DNA of 64,000 nt from the IMG/VR virus record IMGVR_UViG_3300022602_000025. The stretch is one strand, 5' to 3'. The translations under genes were made by a program, and so were the position numbers. The notes beneath the pieces were generated by a model. The model was given only the letters and a program-made list of their open reading frames with translations. It was not told the origin of the DNA and ran no database searches. Positions within the stretch are counted from its first letter, which is position 1, and every line of letters begins with the position of its first letter. This document shows, in pieces, positions 42,345-60,155 of this stretch. Source of the stretch: a virus. Lineage: Duplodnaviria; Caudoviricetes.

Positions 42345-43079
42345 ATGCTAGACCTATTAAAAGACGTAGTAACACATACCCATAACTTGGGTTTCTTAAA
42401 CATTGTAAAAGTCACAGGCGACGAAACATCAACTAAACTTGACTCAATGGCTGATGACCGTTCAGTGATCCTATACGGTGAAGTAAGCGGACCAGTTCCA
42501 GAAATGATTGGTGTATTTGGTATGCCACAACTTAACAAGTTGAAAATTCATTTAGACTGTCCAGAGTATAAAGAGAATGCTTCAATTGATGTTGTTACAG
42601 CACAGCGTAACGGCGATACAATTCCAGTAGGCTTACACTTTGAGAATGCCGCAGGTGACTTCAAGAACGACTATCGTTTCATGAACACAGAAATCATCAA
42701 CGAAAAGTTAAAGACTGTTAAGTTCCGTGGAGTTAATTGGCAGGTTGAGGTTGATCCAACTGTTGCCGCAATCCAACGTTTTAACTATCAAGCACAAGCA
42801 AACGCAGAACACACAACATTTTTAACTAAAACTGAAAATGGTAATCTAAAGTTTGTATTTGGTGATCAAAGCACACACGGCGGCGAGTTCGTATTTGCTA
42901 CAGGTGTTGCTGGTACATTGAACAAAGCGTGGACATGGCCAGTTCAGCAAGTGTTGAGCATCTTGAAAATCGCAGATGCTAATAATTGCAAATTAAGTAT
43001 CAGTAATGACGGTGCCATGCAGATCGCTTTAGACAGCGGCTTGGCAACTTACAAATATATCATTCCAGCTCAGGCTTAA
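42345..43079 (+). CDS. sliding clamp (gp45-like)
   Basis: 244 aa, beta/alpha clamp pattern ending ISNDGAMQI...YKYIIPA, directly after the polymerase. Confidence 0.75.
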   Translation: MLDLLKDVVTHTHNLGFLNIVKVTGDETSTKLDSMADDRSVILYGEVSGPVPEMIGVFGMPQLNKLKIHLDCPEYKENASIDVVTAQRNGDTIPVGLHFENAAGDFKNDYRFMNTEIINEKLKTVKFRGVNWQVEVDPTVAAIQRFNYQAQANAEHTTFLTKTENGNLKFVFGDQSTHGGEFVFATGVAGTLNKAWTWPVQQVLSILKIADANNCKLSISNDGAMQIALDSGLATYKYIIPAQA

Positions 43080-43706: not shown

Positions 43707-43855
43707 ACGAACGAGATATGCCTTGGTGGATGGTCGTTATTGGTTTATTAGTTTTGCCAATTATTTTTGTATTTGTTGGCATTAGTAATATACTTAAAAG
43801 AAAAATGTCAGAGGCAAGAAAAAAATTATGGGAACAAAAACGAAATGAAAAGTAG
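43703..43855 (+). CDS. 50-aa single-TM protein (absent from ORF track)
   Basis: MNERDMPWWMVVIGLLVLPIIFVFVGISNILKRK...; fills the gap and overlaps both neighbours. Confidence 0.55.
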   Translation: MNERDMPWWMVVIGLLVLPIIFVFVGISNILKRKMSEARKKLWEQKRNEK

Positions 43856-45473
43856 ACCACCAGTAGATTTAAGTGTATTGAATAAGGATTATGCCTGCTA
43901 TTTGCCAGCTATCAGTAGTTTTTATAGCACATATATAGCAAAACAAAGATTAGAAGAGTTTGTGCCTAAGGATCGTATTCCAGCAGGATTTGATCGCGGT
44001 ATTGAAGGTATGAACTTTTTAAATCCAGAAGAAGGCTATTTTACCTACAAGTATGGTTTGTATTCAGCAGGTCACGCACAGTTAGATCTTAATAAGAGTC
44101 TAACACAAGAGTCTATGATCCAACAACGTGATCGTGCTAACACAATGATCTTAGGTGACTCAGGTGGTTATCAGATTGGTAAGGGTGTTCTAAAATTTGA
44201 TTGGTTAGACTTTGAAGGTAAGAGTGCTAACAAGACTCGTCAAAGCATCTTAGAGTGGCTTGAACTTACAGCAGATTGGTCAATGATGCTGGACGTTCCA
44301 ACATGGGCATGTGACCATGTACACTCTCCAAAGACTGGTTTAAAATCATTTGATGATTGTTTAGAAAAGACAGCATTCAATAACAAATACTTCTTAGAAA
44401 ATCGTTTAGGACAAACTAAGTTCTTAAATGTTCTGCAAGGTAGTGATTGGGATACCGCTGAGAAATGGTACGATAGAGTTAAAGAATTTAGCGACCCTGC
44501 TGTTTGGGGTGATAAAGCTGCAGAAGGTTGGGCATTTGGTGGCGCCAACATGTGTAAAATGGACATTACTCTTAAACGTCTAATGACTATGAGAGAAGAT
44601 GGAATGTTAGTAGGCAAGAATTGGATTCACTTCTTGGGTACAGCACAATTAGATTGGTCATGCTACTTAACACAAATTCAACGTCAGATAAGGAAACACA
44701 TCAATGAAGAAATTACCATCTCTTTTGACTGCGCCTCACCGTTCATCGCAACAGCACACGGCCTCGTCTACACCAACGCAGTCCACACGCCAAAACGGTG
44801 GAGTGTTATTATGGACAAAGCACCAGATAACAAAGCACTTTCAGGATCAGACATCCCGTTCCCCTTTGAATCAACAATCGGCCGCAGATTAACAATGGCA
44901 GATATTGCCTATTACAACTTAGGCAAACGCAAGACAGATGCTGAATTAAATGGTGAAAAATTTGATCACTTAAACCCAGATCACTATCACGAAGTACCAA
45001 GACTTAACAAGTTAGGTAAGATTCCTAACAAAACAAGTTGGGATAGTTTTGCTTATGCACTAATGATGGGTCATAACGTAGAATGTCATATTGTTGCTGT
45101 ACAACGTGCTCAACAATTAATGGATATTGAAATCGCTAAGACTAAAGATAAACTTCATTGGAGTCATTGGAAGAAAGTAAAATCTAACGACATGAGTGAT
45201 GAATATTCAGATTGGGTTCCACGTAATATTCTTTATTTTAATAGTTTTGTTGAAGATTTGTTTAATACAAAGACAAAAGCAGAAGCATTTGAAATGATTG
45301 AACAAGCTACTCCATTCTTGAAAACATTGGAAGGTGCTCGTTTACAAGGCGGACCTGCTGCAAATACATTTGGTTCATTGTTTACAATTGAAACTGTAAC
45401 TAGCCCAGATGAAATTGATCTAGCAAATCCAGACGATGATGAATTGCGAGCATTAGAGGAAAGCGTAGCATGA
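43845..45473 (+). CDS. dpdA: TGT-fold guanine transglycosylase (DpdA-like)
   Basis: GDSGGYQ, MLDVP, VLQG, WAFGG, HFLG and SFDCASP TGT motifs with both catalytic Asp; start at 43845. Confidence 0.8.
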   Translation: MKSRPPVDLSVLNKDYACYLPAISSFYSTYIAKQRLEEFVPKDRIPAGFDRGIEGMNFLNPEEGYFTYKYGLYSAGHAQLDLNKSLTQESMIQQRDRANTMILGDSGGYQIGKGVLKFDWLDFEGKSANKTRQSILEWLELTADWSMMLDVPTWACDHVHSPKTGLKSFDDCLEKTAFNNKYFLENRLGQTKFLNVLQGSDWDTAEKWYDRVKEFSDPAVWGDKAAEGWAFGGANMCKMDITLKRLMTMREDGMLVGKNWIHFLGTAQLDWSCYLTQIQRQIRKHINEEITISFDCASPFIATAHGLVYTNAVHTPKRWSVIMDKAPDNKALSGSDIPFPFESTIGRRLTMADIAYYNLGKRKTDAELNGEKFDHLNPDHYHEVPRLNKLGKIPNKTSWDSFAYALMMGHNVECHIVAVQRAQQLMDIEIAKTKDKLHWSHWKKVKSNDMSDEYSDWVPRNILYFNSFVEDLFNTKTKAEAFEMIEQATPFLKTLEGARLQGGPAANTFGSLFTIETVTSPDEIDLANPDDDELRALEESVA

Positions 45474-45997
45474 AGCGAGAATACGAAACAGGTACGGCAA
45501 GTGATGTAACGTTCTTTATTGGAACTGAGATCGAACGTACTCCTGCATTTGGTATGCGTACTCTTTTTGTAGTAGGTACTCATGACGAACAGGTTATTAC
45601 TAGTCTTGCTAAAAATAATGATTGCACACATATCTATTTTGGTGCTAATCAGAGTTTTCCAAGCCTTAGTGTAAACGATGCAGAAGGATGGCGTCCTTGG
45701 GAAGATATGATTGAAGGTTGTTTGAAGGAAGGCTTTTGGTGTACTTTAGATTTTGACGTAGCACAAGCTGAAGGCCTTTTGGAAAGTGCATTAGTTGAGC
45801 ATCGTAGATTTATTCCGCAGATCAGTGTAAAATTACCTTATCTGCAACAGCTAGGATATAATGCTACGATTAAAATTGACGACAAAGGTTTTGAAGCGTC
45901 TAATCCAGGTGTATGGTGTGTACCGATTGGGGCCATTACACAGCGTAAGTATTTCACCAATTGGGATGAGTATGGTAAAGATGAAATCATATCATGA
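45470..45997 (+). CDS. hypothetical protein coupled to dpdA
   Basis: ATGA overlap; HIYFGAN motif. Confidence 0.65.
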   Translation: MKREYETGTASDVTFFIGTEIERTPAFGMRTLFVVGTHDEQVITSLAKNNDCTHIYFGANQSFPSLSVNDAEGWRPWEDMIEGCLKEGFWCTLDFDVAQAEGLLESALVEHRRFIPQISVKLPYLQQLGYNATIKIDDKGFEASNPGVWCVPIGAITQRKYFTNWDEYGKDEIIS

Positions 45998-46644
45998 ATA
46001 CAGTAATAGCCAAGCCGATAAAATTTCCTAATCACGGAGTTTTAACAGCACAAATCCCAGACAATATTTTGTTAGAGATAAAAAAAGAAATTGATATTAT
46101 CTCAAAAAATCGTGCCGGGTCTAAACCATTCAATGACGAATTAGTAGGACAGATTGCAGACGAGTACGATCTATCTAACTGTAAGCAATTACTAAAAGAT
46201 TATGTAAATGAATTAGCAGCGGCATATAGCGAACAGTTTACACCACTGTATCTTAAAAGTAGAGCCAATGTTGTGCAAGGGTCTTATATACTTGAACTAG
46301 ATAAACTATGGGTCAACTTTCAAAAGAAACACGAATTTAATCCTCCCCATAATCATTCTGGAGCATTTAGTTTTGTAATATGGATCAAGATCCCGTATAA
46401 TTTAGCTAATGAGTTTAAATTAGCTAATTCTAAAAATTCCAATCAACCTTTGAATAGTGTATTCTTTATGCAGTATTCAGATGTGTTAGGAAAGATACAT
46501 AGCTTTCCATTGCCCATAGATAGTGAATACGAAGGTACAATATTATTTTTTCCATCCGAATTGCTTCACGGTGTAAATCCGTTTTATACTAGTGACGAAG
46601 AGAGGATTTCAGTAAGTGGTAATTTATTTGTGAGACAAATATGA
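45994..46644 (+). CDS. 2OG-Fe(II) oxygenase-like protein
   Basis: WVNFQ...FNPPHNHSG..SFVIW, FPSELLHGV and RISVSGN. Confidence 0.75.
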   Translation: MNTVIAKPIKFPNHGVLTAQIPDNILLEIKKEIDIISKNRAGSKPFNDELVGQIADEYDLSNCKQLLKDYVNELAAAYSEQFTPLYLKSRANVVQGSYILELDKLWVNFQKKHEFNPPHNHSGAFSFVIWIKIPYNLANEFKLANSKNSNQPLNSVFFMQYSDVLGKIHSFPLPIDSEYEGTILFFPSELLHGVNPFYTSDEERISVSGNLFVRQI

Positions 46645-47045
46645 CAGGTTCAACATTAAGACAAGATTTTCGCCCAAACAAAATGATCTGGGTCACGTTC
46701 CAGAAGGAAGGCATCCATTGCTATCCTGCGGCGGCTACAGATCCAGCACTAGCTACAGGAGATGAGTATGACGTATCGTTTTTGGCTAGTCCTCATCGCC
46801 ACATCTTTCATTTCAGGGTGTGGATCAATGTGCAACATAATGACAGGGACATCGAGTTCATCCAATTCAAACGATGGCTCGAGTCGCTGTATAATGGTCA
46901 AGGTTCCATTTTGAAACTTGACTATAAAAGTTGTGAAATGATGTCAGACGATTTGTTTGAAGTCATTAGCAAGAAGTATCCAGGCCGCGAGGTTTGGATT
47001 GAGGTCTCCGAAGATGGAGAAAACGGTTCATTTATCAAGTACTAA
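46641..47045 (+). CDS. QueD-like T-fold protein (DpdL-type motif)
   Basis: LASPHRHIF matches LxxxHRHxF; RDIEFIQFK; SCEM; VSEDGENG. Confidence 0.7.
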   Translation: MTGSTLRQDFRPNKMIWVTFQKEGIHCYPAAATDPALATGDEYDVSFLASPHRHIFHFRVWINVQHNDRDIEFIQFKRWLESLYNGQGSILKLDYKSCEMMSDDLFEVISKKYPGREVWIEVSEDGENGSFIKY

Positions 47046-47065
47046 CTAGAAATAAGGAAATAGAA

Positions 47066-47296
47066 ATGGCACAGCCAAAGTGGTTGAATAAGTATCTTAC
47101 TATGAAACCAGAAGTTACTAAGATCTTCAACGATCTTGACACATGGCACGATCACTGTCGTATTGAGTTGATCGATTTTAATCCAGCTGATTTATATAAG
47201 TCAAAATCTTATAAAGATTGGCAACGTACTCAAGAGTACTTACAACGTAAGGCTCGAAGAGAAGCTAAGGCTAAACATGACCGTTTTTCTAATTGA
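47066..47296 (+). CDS. hypothetical protein
   Basis: AGGA RBS, clean ORF. Confidence 0.6.
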   Translation: MAQPKWLNKYLTMKPEVTKIFNDLDTWHDHCRIELIDFNPADLYKSKSYKDWQRTQEYLQRKARREAKAKHDRFSN

Positions 47297-48377
47297 TTTA
47301 GAAGCAGTCGAAACCAGGTACACGGGTCAATGGAAGACTCATGTACCTGCGTTACTTAAAAAGGCAGGACACGATGTTCAAGTTATATCTGGGCCTACGG
47401 ATATTCCTACAGCCACTACTCCTGGTGCTTTTCTTAATTTTGGTGGTACCAATATATACAAGTCTAGTCAAGTTGAACAAATGGGCAGGCTATTTTGCTC
47501 CGGATCAGTTCAGCCTGGCGATCATTTCCTGTTTACCGATGCTTGGCATCCTGGCATCATAAACCTTAAATATATGAGTGAGCTGTTACAGATTCCTGTA
47601 ACAACACATGGCTTATGGCATGCTGGTAGTTATGATCCTCAAGACTTCTTAGGACGTCTTGTAGGTAAAAAGCCCTGGGTTAGAAATGCTGAGTTAAGTT
47701 TTTATAATGCGTTTGATCATAATTACTTTGCTACAGAATTTCATATCAAGCTATTTTTTGACGAGTTACTAATGGGCGGTTTGAAATCTGAAAACCCATG
47801 GTACGAAGATGATATAGCAGAAGTACTAGGCGGAGCAAATCCTAAAATTGTCCGCACTGGTTGGCCAATGGAGTATATGGATGGTACATTGACTATGTAT
47901 AAGAACATGGATAAACGTGATCTTATACTGTTCCCTCATCGCATAGCGCCAGAGAAACAAGTCGAAATCTTTAGAGATCTAAAAGAACACTTACCACAAT
48001 ATGAATTTATTGTGTGTCAGGATCAACAATTAACTAAGAATGAATATCATAACTTGTTAGGTGAGGCTAAACTTGTGTTTAGTGCTAACTTACAAGAAAC
48101 ACTAGGCATCAGTTGTTATGAAGGTGCTATTGTAGATGCTATTCCAATGGTTCCAGATAGACTAAGTTATACAGAAATGTATTACGACACATTTAAGTAT
48201 CCTAGTGAATGGACAGAATCATTTGAAGCATACACCGTCCATCGCCCAGAACTGTGTGGAAAGATAATCCAGTACATGGATAATTATGAAAAGTTCTTAC
48301 CCCAACTTAGAAAACAAACATTAGACCTAACTAATCAATTCTTCAGTGCTGATGTTTTACTAGATAGGATCAAGTAA
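47277..48377 (+). CDS. GT-B glycosyltransferase
   Basis: FPHRIAPEKQ and ANLQETLGISCYEG (E-x7-E). Confidence 0.8.
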   Translation: MTVFLIDLEAVETRYTGQWKTHVPALLKKAGHDVQVISGPTDIPTATTPGAFLNFGGTNIYKSSQVEQMGRLFCSGSVQPGDHFLFTDAWHPGIINLKYMSELLQIPVTTHGLWHAGSYDPQDFLGRLVGKKPWVRNAELSFYNAFDHNYFATEFHIKLFFDELLMGGLKSENPWYEDDIAEVLGGANPKIVRTGWPMEYMDGTLTMYKNMDKRDLILFPHRIAPEKQVEIFRDLKEHLPQYEFIVCQDQQLTKNEYHNLLGEAKLVFSANLQETLGISCYEGAIVDAIPMVPDRLSYTEMYYDTFKYPSEWTESFEAYTVHRPELCGKIIQYMDNYEKFLPQLRKQTLDLTNQFFSADVLLDRIK

Positions 48378-49180
48378 TGTATTTTAGCAGTATAGGTATC
48401 ATAGGAGTAGGTTTTGTAGGTAATGCAATTAGAGATTCTTTTTCAGGAAGTGGTGTAACACGCCTAGTATTGATAGATCAAGATCCTAATAAAACTACAG
48501 GAACTTATGACGACATTATGAACTGCGAGGGCGTATTTGTGTGCGTCCCCAGTCCTATGTCAGATGACGGAAGTTGCGATACTAGCATCTTAGAAAGCGT
48601 TTTAGAACGTTTAAAAGATTACGATGGTGTAATTATCAGTAAATGTACAGCACCACCAGATGTATATGAAAGATTGAACAAGCAGTATAAAAATCTTGTG
48701 CATGTTCCAGAGTTTTTAACAGCGGCCAATGCTGTACAAGATTATGCTAGACAACAATTCTCTATTATTGGCGGAAGTGTACAAGCATACAGATACGAAG
48801 CAGAACGTATTATTAAATCATCATTACCAGATTTACAAGGCGTACAACATTGTTCAATTGGTGAAGCCGCGATGGCCAAATATCTAATCAATACATTTTT
48901 GGCTACCAAGGTGATTTACATGAACGAATTTAAACAACTAGCAGATGCCGCAGGGTTGGACTATGATCGCATTGTTAGGATGACGTCATTTGATGAGCGA
49001 ATTGGACGTAGCCATATGAAAGTTCCAGGCCCAGATGGTGCATACGGATTTGGCGGTGCGTGTTTTCCAAAAGACACTGCGGCATTATTAAAATATGCAG
49101 AAAAACTTAGTGTACCAATGAATGTTTTGGACACAGCCGTCAAGAAAAATACTCTGTTAAGATTGACAGAGCCTAAATAA
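48377..49180 (+). CDS. UDP-glucose/GDP-mannose dehydrogenase family protein lacking the C-terminal domain
   Basis: GVGFVG, VCVPSP, PEFL and GFGGACFPKD. Confidence 0.85.
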   Translation: MYFSSIGIIGVGFVGNAIRDSFSGSGVTRLVLIDQDPNKTTGTYDDIMNCEGVFVCVPSPMSDDGSCDTSILESVLERLKDYDGVIISKCTAPPDVYERLNKQYKNLVHVPEFLTAANAVQDYARQQFSIIGGSVQAYRYEAERIIKSSLPDLQGVQHCSIGEAAMAKYLINTFLATKVIYMNEFKQLADAAGLDYDRIVRMTSFDERIGRSHMKVPGPDGAYGFGGACFPKDTAALLKYAEKLSVPMNVLDTAVKKNTLLRLTEPK

Positions 49181-49191
49181 TCAAGTAAAAT
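49163..49191 (+). promoter_or_regulatory. overlapping early and late promoter of folE
   Basis: TTGACA-17nt-TAAAAT with TAAATA at 49174-49179. Confidence 0.6.
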
Positions 49192-49231
49192 AACTTAAAG
49201 ACATCCACGTCATTAACTCGGAGAATAATAA

Positions 49232-49996
49232 TTGACAACATTTACAACAGAAGATCTACAGAACGTGATCAACGGCGCTGACAATATGAGCGATAAAGGC
49301 TACAAAGAATCGAATCTAGCAGATGTCATTCGTGCTAGAATGAAACGTGAAGGTAAGCGTTTTTGGGCAGGCGACAACATTAGCGATTATGTTTCAGAAG
49401 AAGACAAAACAATCCTAATCAAAGAAGCAACTGAAGCATTTGAAAAAGTATTAGATACTTTGCTTATTGATAGAAACACTGATCCTAATAGCCAAGGTAC
49501 CGCTAAACGTTTGGCTAAAATGTATTTTAACGAGATAATGGCAGGCAGATATGACCCAGCACCAGATGCAACAAGTTTCCCAAATGAAGTCGAAGATGGC
49601 TACAAAGGTATGCTCGTGGTTCGTAGTGAGTTGCGTAGCATGTGTAGTCATCATCATCAGCCCGTTGCTGGTGTTGCTTACATTGGTATCATTGCCGCTG
49701 ATAGGCTTATTGGCTTATCAAAATACACTAGAATCGCCCAGTGGTGTGCTAGAAGAGGAACTCTCCAGGAGGAACTTTGTAATGATATTGCTAGGGAGAT
49801 TTCCGCAGCAACAGGATCAAAAAACGTAGCCGTTTATATTCAAGCTGTTCATGGTTGCTGTGAGAACAGAGGTATTATGGCTAAGAGTTCATTAACTCAA
49901 ACTACCGTATTAACAGGTGCATTTAAAGATGACCCAGATACTAAGAAAGAGTTTTTTGACAACATCAAACTACAACAGGAGTTTGCTACAAAATGA
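49232..49996 (+). CDS. folE: GTP cyclohydrolase I
   Basis: SMCSHHHQP, GLSKYTRI, LQEEL and HGCCENRG; TTG start. Confidence 0.95.
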   Translation: MTTFTTEDLQNVINGADNMSDKGYKESNLADVIRARMKREGKRFWAGDNISDYVSEEDKTILIKEATEAFEKVLDTLLIDRNTDPNSQGTAKRLAKMYFNEIMAGRYDPAPDATSFPNEVEDGYKGMLVVRSELRSMCSHHHQPVAGVAYIGIIAADRLIGLSKYTRIAQWCARRGTLQEELCNDIAREISAATGSKNVAVYIQAVHGCCENRGIMAKSSLTQTTVLTGAFKDDPDTKKEFFDNIKLQQEFATK

Positions 49997-50220
49997 CAGG
50001 TGACGTAATTCTTTTATTTGTTGTGCTAGGACTCGGCATGCTGATTGGACACAATTGGCACTGGGAAAGTGAACGCAAATACAAAGCACGACTATTAAAA
50101 GAATTAGACAGCGAACTCAAAGATGAATTGCTCGTAGAAAAAAATCTAAACGAAAGTCTCAAACAAGATTTAGCAGATATAAAATCTCAACTACGTAAAT
50201 TACAGATAGGAAAAAAATAA
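49993..50220 (+). CDS. TM + coiled-coil small protein
   Basis: N-terminal TM and heptads. Confidence 0.55.
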   Translation: MTGDVILLFVVLGLGMLIGHNWHWESERKYKARLLKELDSELKDELLVEKNLNESLKQDLADIKSQLRKLQIGKK

Positions 50221-50582
50221 TGTCAAACGGTTATGCAGTGGCAGTAGATGAAAGCGCATACATGCCATCAAGAAAATCTAAAAAGAAATCAAACTTTGTA
50301 AAACGTTGGCTTTACAAATGGGTATCAGAGGAAGTTGATAATCAACGATTAGAGGAAAAAATGTCAGCAGGAAGTATATCAATTGGTCCGTCAAATCGCA
50401 TAGACAGCGATAAAGGAATCCGTTTCCAAGTATATAAAGCCACTGGCGGATTTGTTGTAGAAACATCACTTTATGATCGTCAACGTGATCGTCATCATAA
50501 TAGCTTACATATTATTACCGATGACCAAGACCTTGGTGCACAAATTGGCAAAATTATCACGATGGAAACATTAAAGGCATAA
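50220..50582 (+). CDS. hypothetical protein
   Basis: Coupled ORF. Confidence 0.6.
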   Translation: MSNGYAVAVDESAYMPSRKSKKKSNFVKRWLYKWVSEEVDNQRLEEKMSAGSISIGPSNRIDSDKGIRFQVYKATGGFVVETSLYDRQRDRHHNSLHIITDDQDLGAQIGKIITMETLKA

Positions 50583-50815
50583 TGGCTATTTTTGATCCAA
50601 GAGATACACATGTTATCCAGAACGGCGGTTCAGCGGTTACTTACATAACTTCAATAGATCAACAGAATGTTTGGCTTAATGAATTTAAAGTAGATCCAAT
50701 CCGTTTAGGACGCATGTGTGACAAATTTCCAGCTTTACAAAAGTCTTGGGAACAGTTTAAAATAACTTATGAACTTTGCAGGAGCCAAGATGACATTGAC
50801 AGACAAATTCCTTAA
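50582..50815 (+). CDS. hypothetical protein
   Basis: Coupled ORF. Confidence 0.55.
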   Translation: MAIFDPRDTHVIQNGGSAVTYITSIDQQNVWLNEFKVDPIRLGRMCDKFPALQKSWEQFKITYELCRSQDDIDRQIP

Positions 50816-51272
50816 TTGGTTAGATAGTATAGGACGCAAGCGTATCATTCTAGATCGACTATGCAACGAGCCTTATCTAGAACGCTACTATCTATTTTTA
50901 AAAGACCGTGAAAATTTTCCCTTTAACGTATTCCTACACAAATTCCTAAAAGGCGACCCAGACGATGTTCATGATCATCCTTGGGGCTATTGCACTTTTA
51001 TTTTGAAGGGCGGTTATTACGAATGGGTTCCTGTCTTTAACACGATAGGTGAAAAAATTAATGAAATACGATATTGGCGTGGTCCAGGTCACTTCCGTAT
51101 TTGTAAGCCTAATAGCTATCACCGTATTGAATTAAAGCCAGGTGTTACAGCATGGACTTTGTTTATGCCTTTGAAGAAAGTGCGTGAATGGGGATTTTTA
51201 GTCAGCAACAAATGGATTCATAACGAAAAATATTTAAAGGATCGCCGTGAACAAGCAAGTAATAGCATATAG
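50790..51272 (+). CDS. cupin-fold metal-binding protein
   Basis: DVHDHPW...GGYYE...YHRIE; GGAG RBS before ATG 50790. Confidence 0.65.
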   Translation: MTLTDKFLNWLDSIGRKRIILDRLCNEPYLERYYLFLKDRENFPFNVFLHKFLKGDPDDVHDHPWGYCTFILKGGYYEWVPVFNTIGEKINEIRYWRGPGHFRICKPNSYHRIELKPGVTAWTLFMPLKKVREWGFLVSNKWIHNEKYLKDRREQASNSI

Positions 51273-51744
51273 TGATTATGAAAATTTAATTAGCAATATT
51301 TGTAGAGAAATACATCATAGCGGATGGACTCCAGACTATGTTGTAGGACTTACTCGCGGTGGGTTAATTCCTGCCGTTTTCCTTAGCCATTGGCTAGATG
51401 TTAAAATGAACAGTTTAGACATCAGTTTGCGAGATGGCGGTGATTGCGTTAGTAATCTAGGTATGGCTAGTGATGCGTTTGATGGAGTTAATATCTTAGT
51501 AGTCGATGACATCAACGACACAGGTGCTACATTTAATTGGTTGATGAACGATTGGCAAAATAGTGCTCATCCGTCTAGTGAAGTATGGGAAAAGGTTTGG
51601 AACGGAAATGTTAAATTTGCAGTCGTTGTGGATAACTTATCAAGTAAGTCTAAGGTTAGTATGGACTTTGTTGGTATGGAAATTAACAAAGCAGACGAAG
51701 ATGTCTGGATTGAATTCCCTTACGAGAATTGGTGGAAGAAATGA
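51247..51744 (+). CDS. type I phosphoribosyltransferase (Gpt/Hpt-like)
   Basis: VVGLTRGG, LVVDDINDTGATF and WIEFPYE. Confidence 0.9.
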   Translation: MNKQVIAYSDYENLISNICREIHHSGWTPDYVVGLTRGGLIPAVFLSHWLDVKMNSLDISLRDGGDCVSNLGMASDAFDGVNILVVDDINDTGATFNWLMNDWQNSAHPSSEVWEKVWNGNVKFAVVVDNLSSKSKVSMDFVGMEINKADEDVWIEFPYENWWKK

Positions 51745-52103
51745 CAAGATTAGAAGGTTTTGTTCCTAAGGGGTGGGGCTCAGAATTTATCTGGGCTAGC
51801 ACTGATCAATACTGTGGCAAGTTAATGAACTTTAACAAAGGTGCAAAGTTTAGTATGCACTTCCATAAAGACAAAGATGAAACTTGGTATGTACAATCTG
51901 GCAGATTTATTGTCCGCTGGATCGATACCAAGACTGCCGAAACACATGATTGGGAAATAGGTGTTGGCACAGTGTGGCACATTCCGCCATGTATGCCACA
52001 TCAACTTATCTGTGTTGAAGCAGGAACAGTTATCGAAGTTAGTACCCCTGATAGTGTAGAAGACAATTATCGTGTAATTCCAGGCGATAGCCAGAAAGGG
52101 TAG
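51741..52103 (+). CDS. cupin (sugar-isomerase-like)
   Basis: KGWGSE, SMHFH.DKDETW, PHQL and EVSTPD. Confidence 0.75.
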   Translation: MTRLEGFVPKGWGSEFIWASTDQYCGKLMNFNKGAKFSMHFHKDKDETWYVQSGRFIVRWIDTKTAETHDWEIGVGTVWHIPPCMPHQLICVEAGTVIEVSTPDSVEDNYRVIPGDSQKG

Positions 52104-52104
52104 T

Positions 52105-52326
52105 ATGTATAAAACAATTTACACAGAAGTCGAAGTTGATGTTGACTTAGCAGATTTTGACACAGACGATCTAATTGAAGAATTAGAGTCACGTGGCTCG
52201 GGTGTTATGGACTATGGTGATGGCAAAGAAGTGCTAGAATCCATTTACCAAAAACGTAGACTGGGCAAAGATTACCAAGCTGAACTGGAAACCCTAATCT
52301 ATCTAGGACTTGGTCGCATCATATGA
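52105..52326 (+). CDS. hypothetical acidic protein
   Basis: Clean ORF. Confidence 0.6.
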   Translation: MYKTIYTEVEVDVDLADFDTDDLIEELESRGSGVMDYGDGKEVLESIYQKRRLGKDYQAELETLIYLGLGRII

Positions 52327-52724
52327 AGAAGATAATTGTCAACGGCACATTTGATATCCTACATCAAGGACATATCAGAATGCTAAACACAGCACGTAGC
52401 CTAGGAGACTATCTACTTGTGTGTATTGACACAGACCGTAGGGTTAAAGAACTTAAAGGCGAAAATCGTCCTATCGTAAATCAATACGATCGCAAATATC
52501 ATTTAGAACAGTTACGATCAGTAGATCAAGTTTTGATGTTTGATAGCCAAGAAGAACTTATAGAAATTATTCAAATCTTTAAACCAGACATTATGGTCAA
52601 AGGTAGCGACTACAAAGGTCGTAGTGTAATTGGTGAAACTTATGTACCAGAAGTAATTTATTATGAACGACTCGGTGAATACTCAACAACGAAAACACTT
52701 CAAACTATTATTGATCGGAGATGA
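52323..52724 (+). CDS. HldE/RfaE domain II-like nucleotidyltransferase
   Basis: NGTFDILHQGH, LKGENRPI, VKGSDY and YSTT. Confidence 0.88.
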   Translation: MKKIIVNGTFDILHQGHIRMLNTARSLGDYLLVCIDTDRRVKELKGENRPIVNQYDRKYHLEQLRSVDQVLMFDSQEELIEIIQIFKPDIMVKGSDYKGRSVIGETYVPEVIYYERLGEYSTTKTLQTIIDRR

Positions 52725-53445
52725 TTGTGTAGATGTTTATCGTTTTGGAACGGTAGACCGCATATCACCCGAAGCACCTGTACCTGTGTTTAAATTTTCA
52801 CATGATGAAGAAAAACCAGGAATGGCTGCTAATGTACAACTCAATTTAGAAGCGTTAGGCTGTGCTGTCGTTCCTATGCTAGGAAAAGAAAGCGTTAAGA
52901 CTCGTTATATTGACTTGCGATCAAAACAACATATTATGAGATCTGATGTTGACTCTACTTCTACTCCGTTACCATTTGATCATATTCCTTATGATTTAAA
53001 CAACGGTAATGTAGATGCTATTGTTATTAGCGATTATAACAAAGGATATGTTAGTTACGATCTAATAAAAAATCTTCGTAAGGCCTATCATGGTCCTATA
53101 TTTGTCGACACTAAAAAGCATGACCTAGCACAATTAGAAGGGTGCATTATTAAAATTAATATGCACGAATACAGCCAGCTTACTAGCCACCCTAGCGATT
53201 ACACTGACATGATTGTTACCTATGGCGATAAAGGAGTTGTATGGGGTGATTTTGCGTTTAATGCAAAAACTGTCGAAGTAGCTGATGTATGCGGAGCAGG
53301 CGATACATTTTTATCTGCATTGGTCTACGGCTACCTAACTACTAACAGTATGCAAGATGCTATTAATTTTGCGATTAATGCTAGTGCTGTCACAGTACAG
53401 CATTTAGGAAACTATGCACCAACGTTAGAGGAAATAAATGGATAA
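52663..53445 (+). CDS. HldE/RfaE domain I-like PfkB sugar kinase
   Basis: RISPEAPVPV, GMAANV, ISDYNKG and DVCGAGDTF. Confidence 0.88.
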   Translation: MNDSVNTQQRKHFKLLLIGDDCVDVYRFGTVDRISPEAPVPVFKFSHDEEKPGMAANVQLNLEALGCAVVPMLGKESVKTRYIDLRSKQHIMRSDVDSTSTPLPFDHIPYDLNNGNVDAIVISDYNKGYVSYDLIKNLRKAYHGPIFVDTKKHDLAQLEGCIIKINMHEYSQLTSHPSDYTDMIVTYGDKGVVWGDFAFNAKTVEVADVCGAGDTFLSALVYGYLTTNSMQDAINFAINASAVTVQHLGNYAPTLEEING

Positions 53446-53839
53446 TCATATTTTTAAAGGTATCCCAGATGATATCGATGATAGCGAAGCACCGTGGACT
53501 GAATTAGTAAACGAAGACTATCATGTAAAAGTTTTTGCGGACAAGTATCCTTGTACGCCAGGGCATTTATTGTATGTGCCTAAATATAACACCTTAGGAG
53601 TTTTAAGTGATGCGTTTGAAGATGCAGTTAGATATGGTAAAGGAATGGTGGAAGCCGGAGAATGGGACGGTTTCAATGTGGGACTTAACTATGGCAAAGC
53701 TGCAGGTCAAACTGTCAACTGGCCTCATATACATCTTATCCCACGCAGAACGGGCGATGTCGAAGATCCGGTTGGCGGTGTTAGGAACACAATGCCAGGC
53801 AAAGGCAACTATCGCTCGCCGAACTTTCGAGCAGATTAA
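53438..53839 (+). CDS. HIT family nucleotide hydrolase
   Basis: GQTVNWPHIHLIPR. Confidence 0.9.
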   Translation: MDNHIFKGIPDDIDDSEAPWTELVNEDYHVKVFADKYPCTPGHLLYVPKYNTLGVLSDAFEDAVRYGKGMVEAGEWDGFNVGLNYGKAAGQTVNWPHIHLIPRRTGDVEDPVGGVRNTMPGKGNYRSPNFRAD

Positions 53840-54257
53840 ACCAACGTTTTCTTTGCCTTTGCTAACAGTCGGTCAACCTGGGCAGGTATTGACAGCAGGA
53901 ACAGGACTGTACTCTACTGTACCACAATGGGCGTTTCCAAACAACTCTATCACATTTCACAATAAAGATAGTAAACCTACATTAATCATTACTAACGATG
54001 GTGATGTGGAATGGCACGGTAAACCTAGCGAAGCCGCTGATGCATTAGTGCGTACTTTCCAATTCAAAGTGGAAGATATGAAAGGTGTTACCAAAGCTGC
54101 TAGACGTAGATATTATTTGCGGGCCTGCCAAAATATTCTAAATAAAGCTGAAACTATGGAACATAATGAATTTCTTGACTTTCTACGCAAACATGTGTAT
54201 AATAAAGAAAGACGTGTCATTATGAGTGCATTAAAAGGAGAAGATGATGTTTCATGA
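53757..54257 (+). CDS. hypothetical protein (start uncertain)
   Basis: Open frame 53607-54257; no ATG near the HIT stop. Confidence 0.45.
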   Translation: MSKIRLAVLGTQCQAKATIARRTFEQIKPTFSLPLLTVGQPGQVLTAGTGLYSTVPQWAFPNNSITFHNKDSKPTLIITNDGDVEWHGKPSEAADALVRTFQFKVEDMKGVTKAARRRYYLRACQNILNKAETMEHNEFLDFLRKHVYNKERRVIMSALKGEDDVS

Positions 54258-54483
54258 ATCGATTAAAGTAAATGAATTTTTAGTTAAAGATAATCCTGGT
54301 TTCCGTATGCGTGTACAGGCTTGGGAAGTAGCCAGTCCAAAAGGATTATACAGTTTAGATTTTATCCAAGAATCTAAAGACTCAGATGGCGAAATTATAG
54401 GTACTCAAACTTATAATTTCTTCATGACAGCAGATGAAATTTCTAAATTATGTGAGGGTTTACAAAATGCAAGTAAGAGCTAA
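54244..54483 (+). CDS. hypothetical protein
   Basis: GGAG RBS. Confidence 0.6.
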   Translation: MMFHESIKVNEFLVKDNPGFRMRVQAWEVASPKGLYSLDFIQESKDSDGEIIGTQTYNFFMTADEISKLCEGLQNASKS

Positions 54484-54637
54484 TCCAAACGGTAAAATTG
54501 GTACCTGTGGGTGTGGTCGTAGTCCGACTGGTAATTGTTGCGGATGGCATGGCCTAAGTGAAGAACAGTATCAAGAAGCCCATGCCAAATGGTTGCAAGA
54601 AAACAGCGTTGAAAGCGAAGGCGGAGAAATTGAGTAA
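54467..54637 (+). CDS. CDGSH-like small Fe-S/Zn protein
   Basis: CGCGRSPTGNCCGWH resembles CxCxxSxxxPxCDGSH. Confidence 0.65.
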   Translation: MQVRANPNGKIGTCGCGRSPTGNCCGWHGLSEEQYQEAHAKWLQENSVESEGGEIE

Positions 54638-55490
54638 GATTAAAATCGCAGAGTTGTTTTACAGCATACAAGGTGAAGGCCGCTATATGGGCGTGCCAAG
54701 TGTCTTTTTACGTACATTTGGTTGTAACTTTAAATGTGCGGGTTTTGGCATGCCACGTGGTGAGCTGAGTACAGAAGCAGATGAAATTGCGGAAGTAAAA
54801 CAGCATTTTACAAAATACGAAGAACTACCGTTAGTATCAACTGGTTGTGATAGTTATGCATCATGGCATCCTGATTTTAAAGATCTAAGTCCCATGCTAA
54901 CAAGTGATGCAATCGCAGATCGCATTATGGAAATCCTTCCGCATAATGAATGGCTAGATGAACATTTAGTCATCACAGGTGGTGAACCCCTGTTAGGTTG
55001 GCAACGTGCTTATCCAGATTTACTTGACAATCCTAAAATGTCTGGATTGAAAGAAATTACTTTTGAAACAAATGGTACTCAGAAACTTACACAAGAGTTT
55101 AAAGAATATTTAAAAACCTGGAATCAACGACAATTTCCACATGGTGATTGTGGGGAGATTACATTTAGTGTAAGTGCTAAACTTCCTTGCAGTGGCGAAA
55201 AGTGGGAAGATGCTATCAAGCCAGAAGTCGTATGCGAATATGAAGAAGTTGGTACAGCATACTTGAAATTTGTCATTGCTACAGAACAAGACTTTGCTGA
55301 TGCAGAATGTGCTATTGGTGCATATCGCGCCGCTGGATTTAAAGGACATGTTTACTTAATGCCAGTTGGTGGCGTTGAAAGTGTATATGCTTTGAATAAT
55401 AAATCAGTGGCACTAATGGCTATGAAACATGGTTTACGCTATAGCGATCGTTTACAAGTTCCGCTATTTAAAAACGAGTGGGGTACTTAA
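54630..55490 (+). CDS. queE: 7-carboxy-7-deazaguanine synthase, radical SAM
   Basis: ELFYSIQGEG...VFLRTFGCNFKC, ITGGEP, FETNG and RYSDRLQ; TTG start at 54630 after GGAG. Confidence 0.9.
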   Translation: MSKIKIAELFYSIQGEGRYMGVPSVFLRTFGCNFKCAGFGMPRGELSTEADEIAEVKQHFTKYEELPLVSTGCDSYASWHPDFKDLSPMLTSDAIADRIMEILPHNEWLDEHLVITGGEPLLGWQRAYPDLLDNPKMSGLKEITFETNGTQKLTQEFKEYLKTWNQRQFPHGDCGEITFSVSAKLPCSGEKWEDAIKPEVVCEYEEVGTAYLKFVIATEQDFADAECAIGAYRAAGFKGHVYLMPVGGVESVYALNNKSVALMAMKHGLRYSDRLQVPLFKNEWGT

Positions 55491-56193: not shown

Positions 56194-56571
56194 ATGTTTG
56201 ATAAAATTAAAAAGTTTTTTGATGAAAGAAAAGTCAAAAAGGAAGCGAAGAAATACTTAGTTAAAAATGAGCCCGCAGATGCAAAAACAGCGGCTACTCT
56301 TAAAAAAGAACCCTGGGTATCTGTATTAGATACTCACGTCAATCCAGAGAATCCACGTAATGGATTTTTTGAACTTGACTGGAACGAGTACTTTGTGTTA
56401 ATGTTAACTAAGAACGGTTACAGAGGTACTACTGAAGAAGAAATTGTAGACCAATGGTTCCAAGACCTGTGCCGTGAAATTGGTGCAGAAGATGATATTA
56501 ATATGGAACGTAGAGGTAGCGGATTTGTTACTCGTGCGTTACGTGAAGATGGAAAGGTTGAGATAAGTTAA
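56194..56571 (+). CDS. hypothetical protein
   Basis: Clean ORF directly before the RNase H gene. Confidence 0.65.
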   Translation: MFDKIKKFFDERKVKKEAKKYLVKNEPADAKTAATLKKEPWVSVLDTHVNPENPRNGFFELDWNEYFVLMLTKNGYRGTTEEEIVDQWFQDLCREIGAEDDINMERRGSGFVTRALREDGKVEIS

Positions 56572-57557
56572 TGACATATATTTTGGTAGACACGGCAAAT
56601 ACATTTTTCCGTGCAAGACATGTAGTACGTGGAGACATTTCTGAAAAAGTAGGAATGAGCTTGCACGTCATTTTAAACTCTGTGCGTAAAGCGTGGAAAG
56701 ACTTTGATGGGAAACATGTCATATTCTGCCTAGAAGGTCGTAGCTGGCGTAAGGACCACTATGCGCCGTACAAGCGTAATAGACAAGAAACACGTGATGC
56801 GATGAGTCCAAAAGATGCAGAAGAAGATAAAGTATTCTGGGAAACTTTTGATGACTTCAAAACATTTGTTACTGAAAAAACTAACTGTACTGTATTACAG
56901 CATCCTCAGTTAGAAGCAGATGATTTGATCGCAGGTTGGATTGCCGCACATCCAAATGACAATCATGTTATTATTTCAACAGACGGCGACTTCGCACAAC
57001 TTATTGCTCCCAACGTAAAACAGTATAACGGTGTTACGCAGGTTACAATAACACACGAAGGATACTTTGACGAAAAAGGTAAACCTGTTAAAGATAAGAA
57101 AACTGGAGAAGTAAAACCTGCTCCAGATCCAGAATGGTTGCTGTTTGAAAAATGTATGCGTGGCGACACTAGCGATAACGTGTTTAGTGCATATCCAGGT
57201 GTGCGTACTAAAGGCACTAAAAACAAAGTTGGTCTTTTAGAAGCATTTGGTGATCGTAACTCAAAAGGTTATAGTTGGAACAATCTCATGCTGCAGCGTT
57301 GGACTGATCACGAAGGTGTAGAACATCGTGTGCTAGATGATTACAACCGTAATGTCACTTTGTGTGACCTAACAGCACAGCCTGATAATATTAAACAACT
57401 TATCAGCCAAACAATTAATGAAGCTGTCGAAGCAGATAAAAATATTCCGCAAGTTGGAATTAGACTTATGAAGTTTTGCGGAGCATACGATTTAGCAAAA
57501 GTGGGCGAGCAGATTACAAGTTATGTAGATCCGTTTAACATGAGGTATAATCAATGA
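56571..57557 (+). CDS. rnh: RNase H / 5'-3' exonuclease (T4 rnh-like)
   Basis: LVDTAN, YKRNR, EADD, ISTDGDF and GDTSDNV. Confidence 0.92.
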   Translation: MTYILVDTANTFFRARHVVRGDISEKVGMSLHVILNSVRKAWKDFDGKHVIFCLEGRSWRKDHYAPYKRNRQETRDAMSPKDAEEDKVFWETFDDFKTFVTEKTNCTVLQHPQLEADDLIAGWIAAHPNDNHVIISTDGDFAQLIAPNVKQYNGVTQVTITHEGYFDEKGKPVKDKKTGEVKPAPDPEWLLFEKCMRGDTSDNVFSAYPGVRTKGTKNKVGLLEAFGDRNSKGYSWNNLMLQRWTDHEGVEHRVLDDYNRNVTLCDLTAQPDNIKQLISQTINEAVEADKNIPQVGIRLMKFCGAYDLAKVGEQITSYVDPFNMRYNQ

Positions 57558-59072: not shown

Positions 59073-60155
59073 ATGGCAAAAGACATTAGTGTCAATCGTG
59101 TACAGACACCCAACGAGGCCAAAGCAGCTATTCGTAAGTGTATGAAAGTTGGACGTCCTGTATTCATGTGGGGTCCTCCAGGTATTGGTAAATCAGATAT
59201 CGTCAAACAACTTGGCGATGAGCAAGGACGTGAAGTTATCGACGTTCGTTTGAGTTTGTGGGAACCTACTGACATTAAGGGTATTCCATATTACAACTCA
59301 GATTCAAAGACAATGACTTGGGCACCTCCAGCAGAGTTGCCTACAGATCCAAACAGTACTGCAGTTCTATTCCTAGACGAACTTAATTCAGCAGCTCCTG
59401 CTACACAAGCAGCGGCCTTCCAATTGGTGTTGAATCGTCGTGTAGGTACATACACTTTGCCCAAAGGTGTTAGCATTGTAGCCGCTGGTAACCGTGAAGG
59501 TGATAAAGGTGTTACATATCGTATGCCTGCTCCGTTGGCTAACCGCTTCTTGCACTTGGAATTGCATCACGATCATGCAGATTGGCAAGAATGGGCTGTT
59601 GCTAACAAGATCCATGAACAGGTTGTAGGCTATTTGGGTTTTGCTAAACAAGACTTGTATGACTTTGATCCAAAGAGCTCAAGCCGTGCATTTGCTACTC
59701 CACGTAGCTGGTCATTTGTTTCTGACTTGTTGGGCGATGACGACTTGCCAGAATCTACATTGACTGATTTGGTTGCAGGTGCTATCGGTGACGGGTTGGC
59801 TGTTAAGTTTATGGCACACCGCAAGGTTGCTAAACAGATGCCTAAGCCAGAATCAATCCTCAAAGGCGAAATTAAGAAATTGGAAATTAAAGAAATTTCC
59901 GCTATGTATTCTTTGACAATCAGTATGTGCTACGAACTTCAAACAGCGCATGAGAAGAAAGTTAAAGAATGGAACGAAATGGCAGATTGTTTCTTCCGCT
60001 TTATGATGGATAATTTCCCAACTGAGTTGGTAGTTATGGGTGCTAAGGTTGCTCTTACACAGTATCAATTACCGTTTGACGCTAGCAAGCTCAAGAGCTT
60101 TGATGAGTTCCATGAGAAGTTTGGCAAGTACATTATCTCAGCAATGGAGAGTTAA
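59073..60155 (+). CDS. MoxR-like AAA+ ATPase
   Basis: GPPGIGKS, LFLDELN, AAGNR, LANRF and TPRSW. Confidence 0.9.
   Translation: MAKDISVNRVQTPNEAKAAIRKCMKVGRPVFMWGPPGIGKSDIVKQLGDEQGREVIDVRLSLWEPTDIKGIPYYNSDSKTMTWAPPAELPTDPNSTAVLFLDELNSAAPATQAAAFQLVLNRRVGTYTLPKGVSIVAAGNREGDKGVTYRMPAPLANRFLHLELHHDHADWQEWAVANKIHEQVVGYLGFAKQDLYDFDPKSSSRAFATPRSWSFVSDLLGDDDLPESTLTDLVAGAIGDGLAVKFMAHRKVAKQMPKPESILKGEIKKLEIKEISAMYSLTISMCYELQTAHEKKVKEWNEMADCFFRFMMDNFPTELVVMGAKVALTQYQLPFDASKLKSFDEFHEKFGKYIISAMES

Follow-up and report, generated by a model that had tools for sequence, protein, structure and literature searches.

Positions 43,845–55,490 of a 64,000-nt stretch of tailed-phage DNA (IMG/VR record IMGVR_UViG_3300022602_000025; Duplodnaviria, Caudoviricetes; hereafter, the window) are best explained as a 7-deazaguanine DNA-modification module lying among replication genes, with a glycosyltransferase and a 175-amino-acid (aa) protein as fixed members; to this explanation as a whole we give somewhat more than even credence. 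Its parts differ in strength. That a 7-deazaguanine is placed in the DNA by a DpdA-like enzyme is very probable, participation of the glycosyltransferase in the deazaguanine pathway is mildly favored, and a sugar on the final DNA base is a tentative proposal. The evidence consists of folds, motifs, homology, synteny and a predicted contact with the sliding clamp; the activities of all the enzymes, their action on DNA and the presence of a sugar are inferred from it. An initial annotation of the window had described a 7-deazaguanine DNA-modification island, a description that our analysis supports. The genes on which the argument turns are as follows.

39618..42287, + strand, family B DNA polymerase (PF00136; same position in related contigs)
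42345..43079, + strand, sliding-clamp-like protein, 244 aa (phrog_12062; language-model look-alikes)
43845..45473, + strand, DpdA-like transglycosylase with the fold of tRNA-guanine transglycosylase (TGT), 542 aa (model and motifs)
45470..45997, + strand, 175-aa protein (start overlaps the DpdA-like stop codon; conserved)
46641..47045, + strand, DpdL-type T-fold QueD paralogue (LASPHRHIF motif)
47066..47296, + strand, 76-aa protein (conserved; no Pfam or PHROG family match)
47277..48377, + strand, GT-B glycosyltransferase resembling glycosyltransferase family 4 (GT4), 366 aa (model, EX7E motif)
49232..49996, + strand, GTP cyclohydrolase I, FolE (PF01227 at 7e-40)
54558..55490, + strand, QueE-type radical-SAM synthase of 7-carboxy-7-deazaguanine (CDG) (phrog_2076 at 6e-49)

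The eight genes named in the initial annotation (TGT-fold, a coupled gene now seen to encode the 175-aa protein, 2-oxoglutarate (2OG) oxygenase, QueD-like, GT-B, a gene resembling UDP-glucose dehydrogenase (UGDH), FolE and QueE) were confirmed by motifs, family matches and models. All are on the + strand and closely spaced, with ATGA-type overlaps. They had been placed immediately after the polymerase and clamp; that order is right, and three small open reading frames (ORFs) lie between the clamp-like gene and the TGT-like gene.

The window belongs to a lineage of freshwater jumbo phages that is abundant and has Pseudomonas phage PA5oct as a distant relative. No near-identical DNA to the island was found in 50,697 phage records; at the protein level the nearest isolates are PA5oct-like Pseudomonas jumbo phages, which share the gene order. 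The polymerase is 52% identical to that of PA5oct and 81–88% identical to those of metagenomic relatives, and the TGT-like protein, glycosyltransferase and DpdL are 42%, 41% and 57% identical, respectively, to their PA5oct counterparts. A relative of the TGT-like protein is encoded by 589 IMG/VR loci, of which the best 80 are 79–88% identical, on contigs of up to 331 kb, and the sequence is found in lake and other freshwater metagenome runs. Gene-content counts below refer to 48 related loci in which the sequence continues for at least 3 kb past the TGT-like gene (at least 8 kb in 26 of them), and the genome outside the window was judged from five large IMG/VR contigs of relatives, one of them 93% complete.

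A long DpdA-like transglycosylase

We treat the 542-aa protein as a member of the TGT/DpdA superfamily that belongs to no described subfamily, on the basis of profile scores and fold comparison. As a single sequence it has no match in Pfam, PHROG, NCBIfam or the PDB; searched against the PDB, the family profiles of this protein and of the glycosyltransferase returned TGT only below threshold (E about 1) or noise. The top 50 Foldseek matches of its AlphaFold2 model (pLDDT 88.9, pTM 0.89) in the PDB are all TGTs (5e-7). VIA-align, a structure search independent of Foldseek, gave Z scores of 17.4 for ArcTGT, 16.2 for TGT, 15.6 for QTRT2, 15.2 for DpdA (7ui4) and 13.8 for Cap10, as against 11.7 or less for generic TIM barrels. 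The nearest named viral models in BFVD are a TGT of Achromobacter phage Motura (8e-12) and a Vibrio nt-1 protein (9e-9), with DpdA3 of phage phiST at 8e-4.

An exhaustive search recovered a family of 880 clusters at 50% identity. In 52 diverse members, 26–50% identical to the query, D105 (in DSGGxQ) and D295 (in SxDxSSP) are invariant; the corresponding motifs of the window protein read DSGGYQ and FDCASP. We take its LDVPT, NVLQG, GWAFGG and HFLG segments to correspond to the substrate-binding segments DECTP, GIQQG, GYAVGG and YLMG of Zymomonas mobilis TGT. tRNA-guanine transglycosylases carry a structural zinc site, CxCxxC...H; in the alignment of the 52 members no cysteine is invariant and none reaches 90% conservation. 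None of the 52 matches PF01702 or DUF6610 (PF20314) at E ≤ 0.01.

The family profile scores 29 bits against the DpdA of phage ACP17 (gp123), in an alignment spanning DSGG to SYDS, and 9.5 bits against phiST DpdA3. A tblastn search of phage records with the 542-aa protein recovered neither of these proteins nor the Vibrio nt-1, phi-ST2 and VH7D proteins, with which ACP17 gp123 groups. With phage DpdA1–4 and bacterial DpdA (7ui4), the window family has in common the TGT-type TIM barrel, the DSGGxQ general-base aspartate, the nucleophile aspartate and linkage to FolE, QueD and QueE; it differs in its length of ~500–540 aa, a helical C-terminal extension, a predicted clamp-binding tail and a fixed position directly downstream of the polymerase and clamp genes. 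The literature that we searched yielded no description of a fifth DpdA subfamily or of a long, clamp-tethered DpdA-like subfamily. No PF01702-type gene was found in the five relative contigs, and the DpdA-like protein is therefore the sole insertase candidate.

Distant members of the family have another downstream neighbor. In the two contigs L094 (8878–9534) and L097 (2986–3459), a methyltransferase gene (Methyltransf_24 or a weak N6_Mtase match) replaces the 175-aa, DpdL and glycosyltransferase genes.

A tail resembling the polymerase C terminus

A disordered, low-confidence tail of the DpdA-like protein (residues 500–524) carries the peptide NTFGSLF at 507–513. The window polymerase ends in ENTFGSLFSFE, and the tail of its DpdA-like protein reads ANTFGSLFTIE; the same pairing is seen in PA5oct (AAHFDSLFGW in the polymerase, SNSFNSLFDVD in the DpdA-like protein) and in ACP17 (SLDDLFE and TLDELFE). 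In three lineages, then, the tail appears from sequence comparison to track the C terminus of each phage's own polymerase. In phages T4 and RB69 the polymerase C terminus is the clamp-binding peptide, and by analogy we presume that ENTFGSLFSFE has this function in the window phage.

The predicted complex of the clamp-like protein with residues 488–542 of the DpdA-like protein scored 0.75, compared with 0.00 for the best control. This mark is reached by 51 of 78 solved complexes and by 2 of 108 mismatched pairs. In the predicted interface, tail residues 506–517 meet the interdomain region and the C terminus of the clamp. The language-model look-alikes of the clamp-like protein have gp45 or PCNA domains (scores of 0.93–0.94), and its homologue in phage Phosso is annotated as a sliding clamp. 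The tail is thus predicted by modeling to bind the sliding clamp. Because it copies the polymerase clamp peptide and a clamp contact is predicted, tail and model together suggest that the enzyme acts on DNA at the replisome rather than on tRNA.

Genes for the predicted synthesis of the deazaguanine base

In place of the CxxxHGH motif of canonical QueD, the QueD-like protein of the window carries LASPHRHIF. DpdL is defined by LxxxHRHxF and is predicted to be a CDG decarboxylase (Cui et al. 2023, PMC10516641); the initial annotation had named this motif correctly. The window protein is 55% identical to ACP17 DpdL (tblastn 3e-34; profile 165 bits) and 32% identical to CGPG_00067 of phiST (tblastn 2e-8; profile 70 bits), and by motif and sequence the gene is a true DpdL homologue. 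FolE matches the NCBIfam FolE models below cut-off, and its true start is possibly the ATG at 49286. QueE also falls below the cut-off of its NCBIfam models: its cluster motif is C56-x3-C60 with the third cysteine, C97, after a 36-residue insert, as against the canonical CxxxCxxC, and its QGEG is intact. Of the 26 loci that extend 8 kb or more downstream, 25 have a QueE gene.

A six-frame motif scan of the window found no CxxxHGH and no SGGxDS PP-loop, and tblastn with the QueD and QueC-like proteins of relatives found no match, which bears out the initial annotation's statement that the window has neither canonical QueD nor QueC. The rest of the genome, to which the initial annotation had pointed for queC, queD and queF, was approached through the relatives. 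Canonical QueD (CxxxHGH) lies 30–40 kb from the locus in two of them, and a CxxxHGY form of 6-pyruvoyltetrahydropterin synthase lies ~50 kb away in one and is present also in a fourth; no QueF was found in the relatives, nor any QueC above cut-off in the 93%-complete one. The gene set of FolE, QueD, QueE and DpdL, with neither QueF nor an above-cut-off QueC, therefore indicates an encoded route that leads from GTP to CDG and then, by the activity predicted for DpdL, to 7-deazaguanine.

PP-loop proteins of other kinds occur in some relatives. Contigs L082 and L083 (G004 and G002) encode a 210-aa protein whose match to QueC (31 bits) is confined to the C-terminal half of the latter, and L084 (G001) encodes a weaker PP-loop protein beside a SPASM-type radical-SAM gene. 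None of these is in the window.

The same steps make up the phiST system (FolE, QueD, QueE, DpdL and DpdA3; PMC10516641), which shares with the window the DpdL LxxxHRHxF motif, the lack of QueC and QueF and the placement of the cluster next to the polymerase; the steps common to both should yield 7-deazaguanine. phiST differs in having no GT4 glycosyltransferase, no homologue of the 175-aa protein, a DpdA3 of 259 aa and a DpdL only 32% identical to that of the window. In further support of the pathway, the DNA of PA5oct resists restriction enzymes with G-containing sites (PMC12191111).

A glycosyltransferase and a 175-aa protein in the module core

The 366-aa glycosyltransferase has no match in Pfam (PF00534 included), PHROG or NCBIfam and, as a single sequence, none in the PDB; among its look-alike viral clusters, PF00534 is found in 29–92% of members. 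Its model (pLDDT 74) has the two Rossmann domains of a GT-B fold. Foldseek retrieved glycogen synthase, BshA, the GT4 enzyme 2jjm, MshA and the tetrahydrobiopterin glucosyltransferase BGluT (1e-8 to 1e-5, TM ≤ 0.63). GT4 enzymes have an EX7E motif and a basic pair that binds the phosphates of the nucleoside diphosphate (NDP); in the window protein E274-x7-E282 and R222/K227 are invariant across 29 sequences, PA5oct gp167 among them. Its relatives fill more than 8,000 database clusters at 90% identity.

The genes for the 175-aa protein, DpdL, the 76-aa protein and the glycosyltransferase are each present in 48 of 48 related loci. A homologue of the glycosyltransferase occurs in 22 of 50,697 phage records, none of which lacks both DpdL and a TGT-like gene; in 17 the homologue and DpdL are no more than 4 kb apart, and the other five carry a distant TGT-like match. 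The initial annotation's grouping of this gene with the deazaguanine genes thus holds. The glycosyltransferase gene adjoins DpdL or DpdA in PA5oct, ACP17, Phosso and BUDD/X1, in these orders:

PA5oct (module gp168–gp162): polymerase, clamp, DpdA-like (gp168), glycosyltransferase (gp167), DpdL (gp166), phosphoribosyltransferase-like (gp163), QueE
ACP17 (gp122–gp126): 175-aa homologue (gp122), DpdA, glycosyltransferase, DpdL, QueE
Phosso: clamp, unrelated gene, DpdL, glycosyltransferase, FolE, QueE
BUDD and X1: glycosyltransferase, DpdA, DpdL, QueE

In X1 and BCSR5 the glycosyltransferase lies within 3 kb of DpdL. PA5oct and ACP17 have the same module and order as the window and lack its UGDH-like, HldE-like, cupin, HIT and 2OG genes; their records label the products of the glycosyltransferase, DpdL and DpdA-like genes hypothetical. 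The profile of the 175-aa protein matches ACP17 gp122 at 46–82 bits. This protein has no profile match in Pfam, PHROG, NCBIfam or the PDB, weak language-model look-alikes (≤0.85) and no match to the 'glycosylase' that occupies the same position in Phosso. Both the 175-aa protein and the glycosyltransferase belong to the core of the module, and across phages the glycosyltransferase is an optional but strictly deazaguanine-linked add-on.

The text of Cui et al. (PMC10516641) contains no mention of a glycosyltransferase (0 occurrences). In the literature that we searched we found neither a description of a fixed set of glycosyltransferase, 175-aa protein and DpdL with a variable sugar slot, nor a paper on a glycosylated deazaguanine in DNA or on the chemistry of the PA5oct base.

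Accessory genes vary between loci

Other genes of the stretch come and go between relatives. They include, beyond those in the initial annotation, two cupins, a phosphoribosyltransferase, a split HldE-like pair and a HIT protein.

45994..46644, + strand, 2OG-Fe(II) oxygenase (PF13759 at 1e-11, phrog_81 at 7e-33; accessory)
48377..49180, + strand, shortened UGDH-family dehydrogenase, 267 aa (PF03721 and PF00984 only)
50769..51272, + strand, cupin-fold metalloprotein, 167 aa (phrog_4786 at 7e-35; HDHPW and YHR motifs)
51247..51744, + strand, type I phosphoribosyltransferase, weakly XPRT/HGPRT-like (PF00156 at 2e-12)
51729..52103, + strand, second cupin, 124 aa (PF07883; phrog_7851 at 1e-40; accessory)
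52323..52724, + strand, HldE-domain-II-like nucleotidyltransferase (TIGR02199, 121 bits; phrog_7878/phrog_8133 for the pair)
52663..53445, + strand, HldE-domain-I-like PfkB sugar kinase (TIGR02198, 131 bits)
53438..53839, + strand, HIT-family nucleotide hydrolase/transferase (PF01230 at 1.5e-9; accessory)

The 2OG oxygenase, which the initial annotation had counted as part of the system, is found in 0 of 80 related loci and in none of the five large relative contigs, and on account of this absence from all relatives examined we reject it as a pathway component. The first cupin is present in 39 of the 48 loci, FolE in 20, the UGDH-like gene in 17 and the phosphoribosyltransferase in 10 (6 of the 26 loci that extend 8 kb or more). 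The HIT gene was seen in seven related loci and the second cupin in two, and both HldE-like genes occur together in a single related locus, L076. The TGT-like gene and QueE are 3.7–8.7 kb apart in relatives and 9.1 kb apart here, and the accessory load of the window phage is the largest among these loci.

The UGDH-like protein keeps the Rossmann motif GVGFVG and the catalytic cysteine (GGACFPKD) and ends after the central domain: it aligns to residues 11–302 of a 446-aa UGDH, the C-terminal UDP-binding domain is absent, and its full-length relatives are likewise 263–271 aa. As judged from this domain content, the protein should be unable to bind UDP in the UGDH manner. We therefore do not file it as a UDP-sugar dehydrogenase, and the supply of UDP-uronate suggested in the initial annotation becomes doubtful, the more so as the gene is in a minority of the loci. 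One idea, which is pure inference, is that the protein oxidizes the sugar after transfer.

The HldE-like genes are split, in reversed order, with a 62-nt overlap, and both score below the TIGRFAM cut-offs (345 bits for TIGR02198 and 181 for TIGR02199). They are ~43% identical to genes of the T4-like cyanophages S-CAM1, P-SSM2 and S-SSM7, where they adjoin a phosphoheptose isomerase; neither an isomerase nor a phosphatase was seen with the window pair. By homology the pair may be an accessory NDP-sugar cassette, and it may equally serve cell-surface chemistry. The phosphoribosyltransferase matches the NCBIfam XPRT model below cut-off (6e-9) and, by profile, PA5oct gp163 (45 bits); it could salvage the guanine released by base exchange or make a deazapurine nucleotide.

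Proposed pathway and competing explanations

In the pathway that we propose, CDG would be made by FolE and QueE together with a canonical QueD whose gene lies in another part of the genome, and the DpdL-type protein would convert it to 7-deazaguanine. The long DpdA-type transglycosylase would then exchange guanine in DNA for the deazaguanine base while being held at the replisome by its polymerase-like tail peptide. The constant presence of the glycosyltransferase and the 175-aa protein in the module makes further processing of the inserted base, or of its precursor, most likely, with transfer of a sugar from an NDP-sugar as the likeliest step. The slot genes between the glycosyltransferase and QueE, together with the 2OG oxygenase, would be optional and may vary the sugar or salvage the released guanine. 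Applied to all carriers (the freshwater lineage, PA5oct-like phages, ACP17, Phosso and BUDD/X1), the proposal is that they replace G with a glycosylated 7-deazaguanine by means of a clamp-tethered DpdA-type enzyme, a GT4 enzyme, DpdL and the 175-aa protein, the sugar being varied by swappable NDP-sugar genes; we hold this to be possible, at a little below even credence.

The acceptor could be the C7 carboxylate of CDG, the exocyclic amine, C7 itself through C-glycosylation, or an oxygen added by the conserved cupin. The DNA glycosyltransferases of T-even phages, RB69 and DLP3, which act on 5-hydroxymethylcytosine or 5-hydroxycytosine (5hmC/5hoC), share with the window enzyme the GT-B fold, generic GT4 neighbors (BshA, sucrose-phosphate synthase and BGluT), adjoining NDP-sugar genes and variation of these sugar genes among close relatives. 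Unlike them, the window enzyme has no linked hydroxylase of the thymidylate-synthase type; its partners are deazaguanine genes, and the acceptor would for this reason be a purine analogue. A hydroxylated pyrimidine as acceptor is made unlikely by the 93%-complete relative, in which no thymidylate-synthase homologue, a source of such bases, was found. There is a precedent for sugar transfer to a 7-deazapurine base in the GT4 enzyme HuiG of huimycin biosynthesis (bioRxiv 10.64898/2026.04.15.718813). The 7-deazapurine of HuiG is likewise made via FolE, QueD and QueE; the likeness is one of fold class and pathway, and HuiG differs in that its substrate is a free base, O-methylated preQ0, and that its gene cluster, for an actinomycete secondary metabolite, has no transglycosylase. 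In huimycin the attachment is reportedly at the 2-amino group.

Several points weigh against the sugar-bearing base and some of its supports. Some of them favor the main rival explanation, in which plain 2′-deoxy-7-deazaguanine (dDG) or its 7-carboxy form (dCDG) replaces G as in phiST, and the glycosyltransferase, 175-aa protein and sugar genes merely co-travel and have their substrate elsewhere: in the host envelope, in a protein of virion or host, in a small molecule or in another base. An oxygen to which a sugar could be attached is not obvious in 7-deazaguanine. phiST makes plain dDG with DpdL and has no glycosyltransferase, RHph_I1_18 and Ahp1 have none near DpdL, and distant DpdA-like members adjoin QueE or a methyltransferase with neither glycosyltransferase nor DpdL. 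The slot from the glycosyltransferase to QueE is hypervariable, and auxiliary genes of the HldE-like, cupin and 2OG oxygenase families are typical of cyanomyophages. Neighborhood conservation shows linkage and not the acceptor; the glycosyltransferase model is moderately confident and its PDB matches are generic GT4; and the identity of the clamp depends on language-model look-alikes and a single annotation. On the chemical side, the decarboxylase activity of DpdL is itself a prediction, no chemistry has been reported for any phage carrying the module, and mass spectrometry in the PA5oct study covered other phages only (PMC12191111). Expression of ACP17 DpdA and DpdL in Escherichia coli gave no dDG (PMC10516641), a result that counts against the DpdL step and also, by suggesting a missing partner, against the co-travel explanation. 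The co-travel explanation is further opposed by the company that the glycosyltransferase keeps: in phage genomes its family never occurs without DpdL or DpdA-like genes, which in almost all cases lie within 4 kb of it, in at least five unrelated lineages, and it persists in every related locus while true cargo comes and goes. We consider plain dDG or dCDG a rather unlikely account of the module, and a sugar-bearing base a somewhat better one.

Two further explanations are much weaker. The base might be prepared before replication, the phosphoribosyltransferase turning free deazaguanine into a nucleotide that the polymerase then incorporates, which would leave the TGT-like protein to proofreading or salvage. 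A type I phosphoribosyltransferase does belong to the module, its PA5oct homologue gp163 adjoins QueE, and ToyH and TubE are precedents for deazapurine phosphoribosyltransferases in toyocamycin and tubercidin biosynthesis. Its sporadic distribution, with none detected in the ACP17, Phosso and BUDD clusters, makes this route very improbable, as do the two catalytic aspartates and predicted clamp-binding tail that the TGT-like enzyme retains; guanine salvage after base exchange accounts for the phosphoribosyltransferase equally well. Slighter still is the chance that the genes have no role in DNA and serve tRNA queuosine remodeling or a glycosylated pterin or deazapurine metabolite, in the manner of cyanobacterial biopterin glucoside synthesis. 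Both FolE and a T-fold protein belong to pterin metabolism, deazapurine glycosides are known in free form, and the glycosyltransferase model matches the UDP-glucose:tetrahydrobiopterin glucosyltransferase; however, proven DNA arabinosyltransferases give the same PDB matches (PMC13326640), and we reject the pterin-glucoside reading of this match as generic. The transglycosylase, moreover, comes after the polymerase and clamp in every lineage with a tail that copies the polymerase clamp peptide, and PA5oct DNA is G-modified by restriction tests.

Other features of the window

Several small ORFs lie between FolE and the first cupin, and an ORF at 53607–54257, in a different frame from the HIT gene, shares 233 nt with it, as is also seen in relatives. 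A further gene follows QueE:

56571..57557, 5′–3′ exonuclease

A promoter and terminator scan performed overall no better than chance. Its three top promoter-like sites lie directly upstream of the clamp gene, of FolE and of an ORF at 54244–54483, two of them partly inside the preceding reading frame. The polymerase gene is intact in the window; that of PA5oct (L001, 7605–12831) is interrupted by a homing endonuclease, and that of the metagenomic contig L094 (2934–6384) is split into two ORFs with a weak intein match.

Elsewhere in the window, a DnaJ gene (J domain and C-terminal domain; 26110–26943) adjoins one for a ClpB/Hsp104-type double-AAA chaperone (27433–29712). A gap of 565 nt separates the gene for a MoxR-like AAA ATPase (59073–60155) from the next, for a DUF2201 metallopeptidase/VWA protein (60720–61985). 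Two giant ORFs span 2564–9937 (2,457 aa) and 31293–35558 (1,421 aa).

Significance

Among the known purine modifications in the DNA of phages, 7-deazaguanines are the main ones, and each of the eight derivatives so far described is small. The type of pathway found here is already known. The searchable literature gave us no account of three of its features, which in this sense are new: a long DpdA-like subfamily tethered to the clamp, the constant grouping of the glycosyltransferase with the 175-aa protein and DpdL, and the variable sugar slot. If our proposal is true, it would define a new class of DNA hypermodification, consisting of sugar-bearing purine analogues, and would parallel the glycosylation of 5hmC and 5hoC in T-even-like phages. 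The glycosyltransferase would then be an obvious candidate for the enzyme whose lack caused the ACP17 reconstitution to fail, and the clamp-binding tail would suggest how a post-replicative base exchanger approaches complete replacement, by riding with the replisome. The module is carried by cultivable phages (PA5oct, ACP17, Phosso and BUDD), PA5oct being a therapy candidate, which makes the proposal directly testable. The G modification of PA5oct exists, is chemically undefined and is sensed by END nucleases, and its chemistry bears on the specificity of defense against phages. The DpdA-like and glycosyltransferase families are very abundant in lake metagenomes.

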